In this document: positions 4,784 to 52,400 of the stretch, piece by piece
Layout of the letters: each line of letters starts with the position of its first letter
Numbering within the stretch: the first letter of the stretch is position 1
NCBI GenBank assembly: GCA_018063165.1
Contig: JAGOQU010000004.1
Location: forward strand, 23,039-76,216
Origin: Minisyncoccota bacterium
GTDB lineage: Bacteria; Patescibacteriota; Minisyncoccia; Phycocordibacterales; UBA5272
DNA: 53,178 nucleotides
Direction: 5' to 3'
Notes under the pieces: model-generated
The model's input: only the letters and a program-made list of their open reading frames with translations
What the model was told of the DNA's origin: nothing
The model's database searches: none
Made by a program: the position numbers and the translations under genes

Positions 4784-4920
4784 ATAGTATACTACTTTTT
4801 TTATATGTCCAAAATATTTTGCAACCTTTTTACAGTATGTTTTGTTAATCGCCTATTTAAATCTTGACGAAAGCGAACGTCTCACGACGTGATTTACTAA
4901 TCAGTAGTTGGCTTTCTGTT

Positions 4921-4979
4921 CGCGCACTAATATATAAAACCCCGAAACTTAGTTTCTGGGTTTTATATATTAGTGCGCG
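4921..4979. repeat. 59-nt palindrome whose termini copy the tRNA-Ile acceptor 3' strand
   Basis: CGCGCACTAATATATAAAACCCCGAAACT-t-AGTTTCTGGGTTTTATATATTAGTGCGCG has 29-nt arms with one mismatch. The ends equal the CGCGCACTA of the tRNA-Ile 3' end. Confidence 0.8.
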
Positions 4980-4991
4980 AACCAAGATTCG
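4971..4991 (-). repeat. direct 21-nt duplicate of the tRNA-Ile 3' end (T-loop to discriminator plus CTA)
   Basis: TAGTGCGCGAACCAAGATTCG is identical to 5135-5155, the 3' end of the tRNA-Ile gene. It diverges inside the T-loop into GTCATG. Confidence 0.85.
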
Positions 4992-5043
4992 GTCATGCAG
5001 ACAATTTTTGATTACAAAAATAGAAGTCTGCCCGACCCGCATT

Positions 5044-5089
5044 CGAATCTTGGCGTAAGTGACGCAGGTCACTTACTGTCCACGCACTA
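5044..5089 (+). repeat. inverted copy of the tRNA-Ile 3' end interrupted by a 22-nt hairpin
   Basis: CGAATCTTGG-c-[GTAAGTGAC GCAG GTCACTTAC]-tgtc-CACGCACTA reads like the sense tRNA-Ile T-loop/T-stem and acceptor 3' strand. It lies on the strand opposite the gene. Confidence 0.8.
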
Positions 5090-5134
5090 AAAAAAAGAAA
5101 ACTCGAAGCAAATGCTTCGAGTTTTCTTTTTTTT
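5090..5134 (-). terminator. terminator hairpin directly 3' of tRNA-Ile
   Basis: AAAAGAAAACTCGAAGC-aaat-GCTTCGAGTTTTCTTTT, a 17-bp stem flanked by A and T runs. Confidence 0.7.
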
Positions 5135-5136
5135 AG

Positions 5137-5209
5137 TGCGCGAACCAAGATTCGAACTTGGGACCGCTCGAGTATCAGTCGAGTGCTCTACCAGCTGAGC
5201 TATTCGCGC
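5137..5209 (-). tRNA. tRNA-Ile (anticodon GAU)
   Basis: Hand-folded cloverleaf. Acceptor GCGCGAA/TTCGCGC, D arm GCTC..GAGC, anticodon arm CTCGA-CTGATAC-TCGAG, T arm CCAAG-TTCGAAT-CTTGG, discriminator A. No encoded CCA. Confidence 0.92.
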
Positions 5210-5253
5210 ATATTATATTGTATTACCTGCAGATTATCTTCACGTTCTTATAA

Positions 5254-5325
5254 TCTACCAGCTTTGTCAAAAGTTTACTAACTTTTGACACCTTTGCAGC
5301 CGAGCCATCTCGAGCTATTCGCGCA
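5254..5325 (-). pseudogene. partial duplicate of the tRNA-Ile 5' end (positions 1-23) split by a 48-nt hairpin-bearing insert
   Basis: Sense reads GCGCGAATAGCTC-[48 nt containing TGTCAAAAGTT-agta-AACTTTTGACA]-AGCTGGTAGA, against the intact gene GCGCGAATAGCTCAGCTGGTAGA. It lies 45 nt upstream of the real tRNA. Confidence 0.7.
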
Positions 5326-5478
5326 TACGATTTTTAAGTGTCCGTGGATGAGCCATGAATTTATTGATTCGAAATCGCATCAAAACTTTATTGCATACCA
5401 CTGACTGACTCCTTCACTTCTCACATATATCCATAAAGGATATTACAAAATACTACCATAAAAAATGATATAAGAAAA

Positions 5479-29247: not shown

Positions 29248-29275
29248 CAAAAATAAGAGTGAAACGAGTACTTTT

Positions 29276-29321
29276 GTACTCCCACAGCATATCACCTGCG
29301 TGATATGCGTCAGGATTCGAA
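29276..29321. repeat. inverted copy of the tRNA-Arg 3' end interrupted by a 22-nt hairpin
   Basis: GTACTCCCAC-a-[GCATATCAC CTGC GTGATATGC]-gt-CAGGATTCGAA. The flanks are the reverse complement of the tRNA-Arg acceptor 3' strand (CTCCCA) and T-stem/loop (11/11). Confidence 0.8.
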
Positions 29322-29471
29322 AGTTCGGAGTATGTTTTGCTAGCAAGCAAAACAACGAGAAGCGGCTGATTAGTAAATCATGCCATGAGGCCAAAGCGAG
29401 TAAATTTTTACGAAAAAAATTTAACTTGTGGGAGAAATTCCTGGTGGGAATACTTACATCAAAAATACTTC

Positions 29472-29489
29472 GTGACCGAATCCTGGTGG
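29472..29489 (+). repeat. direct partial copy of the tRNA-Arg 3' end starting in the T-loop (GTGAC|CGAATCCTGGTGG)
   Basis: CGAATCCTGGTGG is identical to tRNA-Arg positions 29230-29242. A second looser copy, TTCCTGGTGGGA, lies at 29438-29449. Confidence 0.7.
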
Positions 29490-29569
29490 AATTAAGTTTA
29501 AGAAACGTTACACATGTAACAAGCATGGTTAATTTCCAATGTTTCACTGATAAAGAAATTAAGAACTCA

Positions 29570-29583
29570 GAGGAATCGGTCAC
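29570..29583 (-). repeat. direct partial copy of the tRNA-Gly(GCC) T-loop region preceded by GTGAC
   Basis: The minus strand reads GTGAC|CGATTCCTC, against the tRNA-Gly CGATTCTCC. It forms a 12-nt inverted repeat (1 mismatch) with 29472-29483. Confidence 0.55.
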
Positions 29584-29711
29584 TTCGTCTCGTTTAAGAT
29601 TTATTTTTATTCAAAACTGCGTCCAAGACGTGAATATAGTGACTCAGAATTACTAATTCAAAAATAAAAGACTTCTCGCTTGTTCCAAGAACCGAATCTG
29701 CTGATTCGCCT

Positions 29712-29757
29712 ATTCGATTCTCCACGCAAGCCAAGCGGTTGGCTTGCTTACATACAC
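29712..29757. repeat. inverted copy of the tRNA-Gly(GCC) 3' end interrupted by a 22-nt hairpin
   Basis: The minus strand reads GTGTATGTAA-[GCAAGCCAA CCGC TTGGCTTGC]-gt-GGAGAATCGAAT. GGAGAATCGAA is the reverse complement (11/11) of the tRNA-Gly T-loop/T-stem. The acceptor part has diverged. Confidence 0.75.
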
Positions 29758-29783
29758 AAAATTCTCGTTTCACTCGTATTTTG

Positions 29784-51446: not shown

Positions 51447-52400
51447 TTAGAGGTTTTTCTTTTTTGAATGAAATTTTTCAAACTGATCACGTAAAAACTT
51501 GTTAGTTACGTTAGTATAAATCTGAGTTGTTGCAATAGATGCATGTCCAAGCATCATCTGTACAGTTCTTAAATCTGCACCGTTGTAAAGAAGGTCTGTT
51601 GCAAAACTGTGTCTTATAACGTGTGGCGTACACTTTTTTGCTATACCTGCACGTTCTGCATATTTTGTTACAATACGTTCCACACTTCGTGGGGTAAGGC
51701 GAACCGAATCTTCTTTAACCATTCGAGAATGTGCGCGAGGGGAATGATCAATAAACATAGCTTCATCAATGTCTACACGTGAAGATATGTATTTTTTAAC
51801 GGCTTCTCGTGCTGAGCCAGAAATAAACACAACACGTATCTTACCTCCTTTACCCCTTACAGATATTTCACCCGTTTGTAATTCTATATCTCTATTAAGA
51901 GAGCAGAGTTCTGAAACACGTAATCCTGTAGAAAAAAAGAGTTCTAATACGGCTTTATCTCTAAGACCTCCAATAGTAGAAACGTCTGGTGCTGACAATA
52001 AATTCTCTAATTCTTTTTCTGAGATAAGGTCGAGCTCTCTTTGCTGTGTTTTAGCTAGTTCTATTCTTTCTGGATCATATGAAGAAACACCACGCTTACG
52101 CATATATTTCAGAAAAGCACGAAGCGCTATCAGATGATAATTTTGAGTTTTTTTATCAAGCGTTTCCTGAGCTTGACCTTTTTTAATTTCTCGAGCAGGA
52201 TGTCGATTAAGATATACACGATATTCGCGCATCATTTTTTCTTCAAGAGAAGAAGGGGAGTCTGTAGCTCCGTGAGATGTAGCAAATTCTAAAAAACGTG
52301 TAAGATAATGCTCATAATTACGAACAGTAAGAGGAGATCTTCCTTTTTCAATTTCTATATACTGAAGAAAATCTTGTTTAAGAGAATAAAGAGAATTCAT
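51447..52400 (-). CDS. xerC: tyrosine recombinase XerC/XerD family
   Basis: N-terminal SAM-like domain (YLTRFLEF), and a catalytic domain with GLRVSE, HVIRHSFAT, LGHASIATTQIYT (R..H-R-H..Y). Confidence 0.9.
   Translation of the reverse strand: MNSLYSLKQDFLQYIEIEKGRSPLTVRNYEHYLTRFLEFATSHGATDSPSSLEEKMMREYRVYLNRHPAREIKKGQAQETLDKKTQNYHLIALRAFLKYMRKRGVSSYDPERIELAKTQQRELDLISEKELENLLSAPDVSTIGGLRDKAVLELFFSTGLRVSELCSLNRDIELQTGEISVRGKGGKIRVVFISGSAREAVKKYISSRVDIDEAMFIDHSPRAHSRMVKEDSVRLTPRSVERIVTKYAERAGIAKKCTPHVIRHSFATDLLYNGADLRTVQMMLGHASIATTQIYTNVTNKFLRDQFEKFHSKKKNL

Follow-up and report, generated by a model that had tools for sequence, protein, structure and literature searches.

What is the palindrome-rich block that follows the tRNA-Ile(GAT) gene in the stretch of DNA analysed here, and why does it carry both a sense and an antisense copy of the end of this tRNA? 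The stretch, hereafter called the window, is 53,178 nt long and is part of contig C9 of a metagenome-assembled genome (MAG) of 843 kb, with 33% G+C, 15 contigs and 37 tRNA genes. The block comprises one intact unit and the left half of a decayed second unit in tandem, and the same design recurs behind many other tRNA genes. The reading that we favour, to which we would give an even chance, is that both are members of a family of gene-less, non-autonomous DNA modules for insertion or attachment, matched to the tail of a tRNA gene, which would act as a folded single strand with an enzyme provided in trans. As a part of this reading, and with the same evenly balanced confidence, the family would be specific to bacteria of the candidate phyla radiation (CPR) that resemble Paceibacterota and Nomurabacteria.

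Organization of the block behind tRNA-Ile

All locus coordinates refer to the minus strand of the window. The tRNA-Ile(GAT) gene (5136-5209; called by ARAGORN, 73.1 bits with the Rfam tRNA model) ends with the sequence that the units copy, which corresponds to tRNA positions 56-74 (5154-5136) and is designated S. Unit 1, which is intact, comprises the 165 nt from 5135 to 4971. It begins with a symmetric intrinsic-terminator hairpin, term1 (5090-5135), made of TA, an A-tract, a 17-bp stem and a T-tract (T8). Next comes A' (TAGTGCGTGGAC, 5089-5078), which is antisense to the 3' strand of the acceptor, to the discriminator and to two bases of the trailer. It is followed by hp1 (5076-5055), a 9-bp hairpin of sequence GTAAGTGAC-CTGC-GTCACTTAC with CTGC as the loop. 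A single G (5054) leads to T' (CCAAGATTCGAAT, 5053-5041), located with a repeat finder, which is antisense to tRNA positions 53-65. The core (5040-4992) consists of GCGGGTCGG, the nested hairpin hp2 (5030-4998) and CATGAC, and its conserved flanks, GGGTCG and GTGAC, pair via fixed G-U wobbles. The unit ends with the distal S (4991-4971), an exact direct copy of tRNA positions 56-74 plus TA. A 20-mer of the tRNA 3' end has two exact matches in the window, compared with none in 100 shuffles. No plausible gene is present within the 165 nt of unit 1; only short chance open reading frames of 51-71 aa cross the block.

Several of these elements are linked by base pairing. The palindrome of term1 extends outward into S on one side and A' on the other, with arms of 33 nt (5078-5110 and 5113-5145) that the repeat finder scored as 94% complementary. 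A' pairs with TTCGCGCACTA over 11 bp, two of which are G-U pairs, in folds with RNA parameters as well as with DNA parameters. The position of hp1 is exactly opposite the junction of T-stem and acceptor, at the phosphodiester between tRNA positions 65 and 66, and A' and T' paired to S form, together with hp1, a three-way junction. A first-pass annotation, made from the sequence of the window, had listed the terminator, the inverted acceptor/T-arm copy with its hairpin, the nested hairpin, the 21-nt direct copy and a second palindrome, and all five were confirmed position by position, far beyond chance. It had also proposed that the inverted and direct copies pair over 7 bp plus 10 bp. The pairing stood, but the acceptor helix had to be corrected to 11 bp once G-U pairs are allowed.

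The second palindrome belongs to a second symmetric terminator hairpin, term2 (4930-4970). Its arms of 32 nt (4918-4949 and 4951-4982) are 97% complementary, take in the distal S and a second antisense acceptor copy, and end in GTGCGCGAAC. What lies beyond term2, from 4929 to about 4844, is the left half of a decayed second unit, which had escaped the first-pass annotation. Its antisense acceptor copy, A'2, is TAGTGCGCGAAC (4929-4918). Its hp1, GAAAGCCAA-CTAC-TTCGCTTTC, is interrupted by a 26-nt insert of two hairpins (4903-4878). Its T'2 (TCAAGATTTAAAT, 4867-4855) is followed by a degenerate core start, AGGCGATTAAC; both hp2 and a copy of S are missing. Unit 2 aligns to four other units with a clean 26-nt gap. 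It was not recovered by the covariance model described below and is therefore assigned by alignment alone.

A family of units matched to individual tRNAs

With regard to the remaining tRNA genes, we extracted the 260 nt that follow each of them and found the same ordered layout behind about 20 of the 37. The consensus comprises a symmetric terminator, A', an hp1 of 7-10 bp with a CNNC loop, G plus T', RNGGGTCGNG, hp2, GTGAC, and S from C56 on. T' is the reverse complement of tRNA positions 53-65 throughout the family and always ends in TCGAAT or TTGAAT. The conserved motifs are TCGAAT, GGGTCG, GTGAC and the CTGC loop; the arms differ from tRNA to tRNA. The complementarity of A' runs on into the genomic trailer and not into CCA, which indicates that the arm mirrors the gene and not the mature tRNA. 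The units span 120-260 nt each and exhibit this common scaffold over more than 20 different tRNAs. Different tRNAs may have a core in common. The cores are near-identical in the pairs Ile/Val(TAC) and Asn/Tyr, for instance, and Lys shares its core with Arg(TCT). Unit 1 is co-oriented with tRNA-Ile, with one terminator between them, and its T' and S are exact matches to this tRNA. It lies 46 nt from the tRNA end, within the family mode of 42-51 nt, where 61 of 85 units are found.

Based on 18 seed units, we built a covariance model, R1. Unit 1, taken from A' through S (4973-5089), covers the full model (positions 1-113) with 93.8 bits and E = 3.4e-20, a match which is partly by construction, unit 1 having been a seed; the 67 non-seed units from other genomes score between 85 and 109 bits. 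R1 has matches in all 37 genomes of the genus, from 1 to 29 per genome, the genome studied here having the most (29), and weaker matches in 14 other genera of the order. The architecture with tRNA-specific arms was found in 51 of the 61 related genomes searched, all separate assemblies, and in 43 public MAG loci from many studies, the public relatives being labelled Candidatus Paceibacterota or Nomurabacteria.

The pairing was counted in 85 aligned units from 36 genomes of the genus. The alignment was fitted to the model, so the figures are somewhat inflated: 97.0% of the 2361 pair cells hold standard pairs, against 77.7% in shuffles and 36-48% when the partner is slid by 1-3 columns. Both sides have changed in 452 pair cells, and no observed measure was equalled in any of 500 shuffles. 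Strong covariation is seen in three helices. The hp1 helix is 98.6% paired, with seven of its eight pairs covarying, and the core flanks (columns 58-68 with 161-171) are 98.5% paired. An independent run of RNAalifold on the seed alignment gave double changes in 19 of 29 pairs. The pieces behind tRNA-Ile had originally been described as one pairing design that recurs at other tRNAs rather than a single simple integration scar, and both the recurrence and the conserved hairpins bear this out.

The same design had also been reported at tRNA-Arg(TCG) and tRNA-Gly(GCC), and it is indeed present at both. The spacer between these two convergent genes (29249-29782) holds two decayed units face to face; many units of the family are likewise truncated or decayed, including unit 2. 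The Arg(TCG) unit has a different type of core (AGTTCGGAGTATG...TTGCTAGCAAGCAAAAC...), which is also found behind tRNA-Ile in the sister genomes G003, G007 and G029. The insert in hp1 of unit 2 is one copy of a mobile sub-module of about 26 nt (4878-4903 on the minus strand; another copy at 29366-29391 on the plus strand). It consists of two small hairpins, namely a 5-bp stem with an AGYA loop (for instance TGATT-AGTA-AATCA) and a stem of 3-5 bp with a tetraloop, which is of the GNRA type (GTGA, GAGA) in some copies and TTGG in others. The sub-module occupies the hp1 loop in Ile unit 2 and Thr(CGT), the position after T' in Phe and Gly(GCC), and the inside of the core in Arg(TCG).

Two groups of units are visible across the family (loci L055-L114). 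The first, to which unit 1 belongs, has a full S (56-74), a weaker A' and an hp1 that starts with C/T-AAG. The second has a short S (56 to about 64) followed by unrelated DNA, an A' that is perfect into the trailer, and an hp1 that starts with AAA. In a crude ungapped alignment the length of S showed no significant correlation with the quality of A', although the cluster with short S and perfect A' is still visible. One further unit, on contig C14 (130502-130660, minus strand), lies behind a sequence resembling a tmRNA 3' end (GGGGGTTCGATTCCGCCCACCTCCAC); ARAGORN called no tmRNA in this genome.

Folding and strand asymmetry

The minus strand of the region 4965-5095 folds at -58.1 kcal/mol (z = -9.1), which is more stable than the plus strand at -51.5 kcal/mol (z = -8.0). 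A calculation with DNA parameters gives -35.5 kcal/mol (z = -9.05). The rod that the tRNA-sense strand forms, which includes a three-way junction, is preserved by compensatory change. The preference for this strand is not restricted to tRNA-Ile: 17 of the 20 full-length units of this genome fold better on the tRNA-sense strand, with a mean gain of 6.4 kcal/mol (Wilcoxon p = 3e-4). One pair (columns 62/167) is G-U in 79 of 81 units, and two further pairs are mostly G-U. When T' is compared with its tRNA across the family, 535 positions are Watson-Crick, 16 are G-T and 2 are A-C. The asymmetry toward the tRNA-sense strand is a family-wide property and is compatible with a folded RNA as well as with a folded DNA. 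The first-pass annotation had taken a single G-U pair as a hint of a minus-strand transcript; these counts uphold the strand bias, whereas a transcript is not established by them.

When 4840-5215 is folded as a single transcript, the minimum free energy structure joins A' and T' to the 3' half of the tRNA across the terminator, and the cloverleaf is lost. The arms have two alternative pairing registers, S'-S and tRNA-S'.

Gain and loss of units behind identical tRNA genes

Twelve sister species carry a tRNA-Ile that is 100% identical to the one studied here, and what follows it varies widely. Three types of unit were observed (one has hp1, one lacks it, and one has a different core); in other species the tRNA is followed by unrelated sequence, by a terminator without a unit, or by a serine-recombinase gene whose product has 536 aa and whose frame ends antisense inside the tRNA. 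About half of these species have no unit at this place. Units are dispensable, and their turnover is fast. Among the genomes of the genus, one that is scored as 100% complete has a single copy.

The most informative comparison is that of G024, where the site is empty, with G027, where it is filled. In G027, a unit of 183 nt fills the exact interval from the tRNA end to an orthologous terminator with an older unit. The 83 nt that follow the tRNA in G024 recur in G027 at about 90% identity directly past this unit, which itself ends in a sense copy. Comparison of the related tRNA-Ile loci thus shows that tRNA genes which are otherwise identical gain and lose units at their 3' end. The insertion is precise, leaves the tRNA intact and duplicates positions 56-74.

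The unit boundaries are compatible with a crossover at tRNA position 74-76, and the duplicated block equally allows a crossover in the T-loop. Insertion at the tRNA 3' end is the favoured alternative, because a pure T-loop crossover would break the tRNA in some arrays. As the sole model, T-loop crossover was rejected, since any array in which cargo comes after a sense copy ending at about position 65 would be left with a tRNA that does not function.

Units are also present between accessory genes, far from any tRNA. Among the 150 R1 matches listed, at least 16 lie within about 300 nt of a contig end, which is roughly 3-4 times the expectation; units often break assemblies, as repeats or polymorphic insertions do. 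A metagenome scan yielded no strain variants of the downstream flank (0 matches), and a scan of viral contigs yielded 0 matches to the core motif.

Serine recombinases and gene cassettes at tRNA ends

Resolvase-domain genes are present in 43 of the 61 genomes searched, and this genome encodes two large serine recombinases. One of them, on contig C3 (22628-24289, minus strand), is a protein of 553 aa with Resolvase, Recombinase and Zn_ribbon_recom domains. Its reading frame ends 40 nt inside tRNA-Asp, in antisense, and its last residues (...RGRWDLNPRPLP) are encoded by the T-arm of the tRNA. The ten recombinase loci retrieved from related genomes are all arranged in this manner, their ends running antisense into the 3' end of a tRNA (Asn, Tyr, His, Ser, Leu, Ala or Lys/Cys-neighbouring tRNAs). 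According to the attL and attR sites of these elements, crossover occurs at the extreme 3' end of the tRNA. At the distal end of the elements, a decayed arm resembling the tRNA tail is followed at once by a terminator and a unit, as read directly at L045, L050 and L053; an R1 match in the corresponding place and orientation suggests a fourth such case at L049. The far end of the element at tRNA-Asp was not found in this genome; the sole match is inside an unrelated reading frame and was taken as chance.

An island at tRNA-His exhibits the same association in a repeated form. It consists of a terminator, A', hp1, T', core and S, followed by a gene and a decayed arm (GAGTTCTAATCCCGTCTACGACAGTACAC), and this segment is repeated. 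The internal A' arms match the true tRNA-His and not the arm that they adjoin. It follows that every segment was at one time adjacent to the tRNA, which implies serial insertion at the tRNA end.

Proposed mode of action and rival explanations

We favour a folded DNA strand over an RNA because a strong terminator directly precedes the unit and leaves no room for a promoter, because a co-transcript would refold the tRNA, and because the presence of units varies between sister species. According to this proposal, conservative site-specific recombination would bring a unit in at the extreme 3' end of the tRNA gene, which is also the joining point of the large-serine-recombinase elements of the genus. 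A' and T', together with S, would give the folded single strand a double-stranded replica of its target, and hp1 would mark both the strand and the junction of positions 65 and 66. The distal S would restore the landing site, so that tandem units and gene cassettes could pile up. The enzyme in trans could be a large serine recombinase of the tRNA-end kind, or else the one Xer-type tyrosine recombinase common to nearly all genomes. It is conceivable that the arms are copied from the tRNA into A' and T', and thence into S, by hairpin-templated gene conversion.

Many of the same observations would suit a structured RNA made from the tRNA strand, either as a read-through trailer or as a separate small RNA. 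The partner of its antisense arm would be either the 3' half of the adjacent pre-tRNA or S as a decoy, and the RNA could serve as a switch, a chaperone, or an element of processing or quality control. Such an RNA would account for the bias to the tRNA-sense strand with its nearly invariant G-U pairs, for the covariation of three helices, for the GNRA-type tetraloops of the nested inserts, for the matching of every unit to its own tRNA, and for the two pairing registers. Nevertheless, we regard it as unlikely, given that a 17-bp terminator with a T8 tract stands between tRNA and unit, that no promoter fits, and that co-transcription is predicted to unfold the tRNA. Units also behave as dispensable, since they are missing behind an identical tRNA-Ile in about half of the sister species and are down to a single copy in the genome scored as complete, and some lie between accessory genes, at a distance from any tRNA. 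No Rfam family matches: in searches of Rfam 15, at the gathering threshold and at a relaxed E-value, only the tRNA passes, and the sub-threshold matches are generic hairpin (miRNA) models.

Elements that integrate into tRNA genes classically leave a direct repeat that extends from the T-loop to the 3' end, and the 21-nt repeat found here fits this pattern. The units could accordingly be passive debris, that is, stacked scars of the attL/attR type left by repeated integration and excision of serine- or tyrosine-recombinase elements, with neither mobility nor function of their own. The serine-recombinase elements that occupy tRNA ends in this genus, with units right behind them, agree with this explanation, as do the many truncated or decayed units (unit 2 and those of Arg and Gly). 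However, scars would not be expected to keep hp1 and the GGGTCG-hp2-GTGAC scaffold with 97% pairing and hundreds of compensatory changes over more than 20 tRNAs and 37 species, nor do they explain an antisense copy split precisely between positions 65 and 66. The near-identical cores on different tRNAs (Ile and Val(TAC), Asn and Tyr), the lack of relation between the numbers of units and of recombinases, and the G024/G027 pair, which already points to the gain of a unit of its own length, also speak against debris, which we consider quite unlikely. An assembly artefact, in which palindromic chimeras would have formed at the tRNA gene, might be suspected in a metagenome-assembled genome of 15 contigs, all the more as units are enriched near contig ends in relatives. 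This is extremely improbable in view of the separate assemblies of 51 of 61 related genomes that exhibit the architecture with tRNA-specific arms, its recurrence in the 43 public loci, and the orthologous units conserved between species.

Returning to the insertion or attachment module that we favour, a number of observations weigh against it. None of the candidate enzymes (serine recombinase, tyrosine recombinase, reverse transcriptase, Y1 transposase) tracks the units in the 61 genomes searched. Within the genus, the counts of serine recombinases and units are uncorrelated (rho = -0.01), and six genomes with 7-22 units have no serine-recombinase match, most of these genomes being incomplete. 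The reverse transcriptase is patchy (20 of the 37 genomes of the genus). The Y1 HUH transposase (PF01797) has no match in the genome studied here (G000), which has the most units, and is absent from 21 and present in 16 of the 37. The Xer-type recombinase is universal and hence uninformative as a candidate: Phage_integrase (PF00589) gives one match per genome, an Xer-like protein of about 320 aa, in 58 of 61 genomes. In this genome the sole tyrosine recombinase is an Xer-type protein of about 324 aa in the window (about 51504-52025, minus strand), 46 kb from the unit. Moreover, some units are conserved between species, for example that of tRNA-Asn in G000 and G016, and do not turn over quickly. 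The crossover point, at the 3' end or in the T-loop, is hidden by the duplicated block and is not directly readable. The module as proposed does not account for arms that fit every individual tRNA when different tRNAs have core subfamilies in common, and fixed G-U pairs and GNRA-type loops would be equally expected of a functional RNA.

A bolder form of the idea, which seems to us unlikely, sees the unit as a programmable docking module. A' and T', as part of a single strand that is folded or invades, would read one tRNA gene end by base pairing, and the CTGC loop of hp1 together with the wobble scaffold GGGTCG-hp2-GTGAC would recruit a host enzyme. In this way a single machinery could place gene cassettes or empty units after any tRNA, and each move of a core to a new tRNA would have the arms recopied from that tRNA, through hairpin-templated repair or gene conversion. 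If this were true, the units would represent a nucleic-acid-guided class of site-specific mobile DNA that carries no protein gene.

Three other ideas were considered and rejected. A core arising as a small insertion with a 5-nt CGAAT target duplication in the T-arm fits only palindromic TTCGAA loops and fails for Tyr and Leu, in which T' is a clear complement. T' and A' as a primer-binding site for the mature tRNA would require CCA, whereas the complementarity follows the genomic trailer. Finally, the unit is not a mini-tRNA gene, as its T-loop is fully paired and no tRNA model matches it.

Repeats on the 5' side of tRNA genes

A further repeat, which the first-pass annotation had likewise not included, lies on the 5' side of tRNA-Ile (5219-5334, repeat finder) and belongs to a family different from the downstream units. 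It comprises a direct copy of tRNA positions 1-13 (5327-5312), the motif CTCGAGATGGCTCGGCTGCAAAG (also given as CTCGAGAYGGCTCGGCYGCRAAG), an 11-bp hairpin with an AGTA loop (5290-5265) and a copy of the D-loop (AGCTGGTAGA, 5263-5254), after which the promoter region of the real tRNA begins. The same layout is found upstream of tRNA-Ile in at least five sister species (G027, G015, G011, G008 and G032) and, in this genome, upstream of tRNA-Gln(CTG), Leu(CAA) and Ser(GCT) too. Small hairpins similar to those of the 26-nt sub-module occur in this family.

Comparison with known systems

No description of the module family was found in the searchable literature. In their working principle, the closest analogues are the attC sites of integrons and the folded attP of CTX-phi, although the units belong to neither of these, nor to any other known family compared here, as judged by the defining features tested. 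In attC sites, imperfect inverted repeats fold one specific strand, which is marked by asymmetric extra-helical features, and a strand-specific fold with asymmetric features is what we observe in the units. The sequence of attC varies while its structure is conserved, the sites form cassette boundaries in arrays beside a fixed docking site, and gene-less cassettes exist; all of this resembles the units. In contrast, the docking site of the units is a tRNA 3' end and not attI, their arms reproduce about 20 nt of a particular target in sense and antisense instead of consisting of R and L boxes (R''-L''/L'-R') with GTTRRRY, and the place of the extra-helical bases is taken by a complete hairpin of 22 nt. 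No integron integrase was found, the only PF00589 match per genome being the Xer-like one (58 of 61 genomes); features specific to IntI were not examined. The attP(+) of CTX-phi and of integrative mobile elements exploiting Xer (IMEX) has two inverted target-like sites, tens of bases apart, that fold into a duplex replica of the chromosomal target; such elements have no recombinase of their own and form tandem arrays. The units differ in that their targets are many different tRNA ends instead of dif, in that the replica is an exact copy of each target, and in their length of about 165 nt without genes.

With regard to elements that integrate at tRNA genes, the islands and prophages of tyrosine integrases, and their integrase-less remnants of the cis-mobilizable element (CIME) type, share with the units the direct repeat from T-loop to 3' end (exact over 21 nt here), the intact tRNA and tandem accretion. 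Unlike these islands, the units have only 120-260 nt and no integrase gene, and they exhibit an antisense copy and a scaffold common to more than 20 tRNAs. Large-serine-recombinase elements (of the phiC31, Bxb1 and A118 type, including the tRNA-end clade described above) also have their junction at the tRNA 3' end. Their distal arm, like that of gene cassettes without a recombinase, has units directly behind it, and S has the length of one recombinase half-site. However, the units encode nothing, their count is independent of the recombinase count, a 45-nt palindrome separates the two putative half-sites, and one recombinase would need to act on more than 20 tRNA tails.

Other systems resemble the units in fewer respects. 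The primer-binding sites of retroviruses and long-terminal-repeat retrotransposons are also complementary, over about 18-22 nt, to the 3' end of one tRNA. In the units, the complementarity follows the gene and its trailer instead of CCA and is split by hp1, and the reverse transcriptase is absent from 17 of the 37 genomes. Hairpin elements of the IS200/IS605 type (palindrome-associated transposable elements, PATEs) depend on a Y1 HUH transposase, for which this genome has no PF01797 match. In contrast to a miniature inverted-repeat transposable element (MITE), the inverted repeats of the units are target copies that differ per locus, and the duplication is of 19-21 nt and not short.

Whatever their nature, the units break assemblies and mimic both tRNA fragments and prophage scars, so the covariance model improves the annotation of Patescibacteria MAGs. 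If they are RNAs, a tRNA-specific antisense partner would stand beside most tRNA genes, which would be equally unexpected. If they are mobile, they would help to explain the build-up of accessory genes behind tRNA genes in the tiny genomes of CPR bacteria. Whereas known elements use a protein evolved for one site, such units, with the target written in their own arms, would be mobile DNA that chooses its site via a folded sense/antisense replica of that target.

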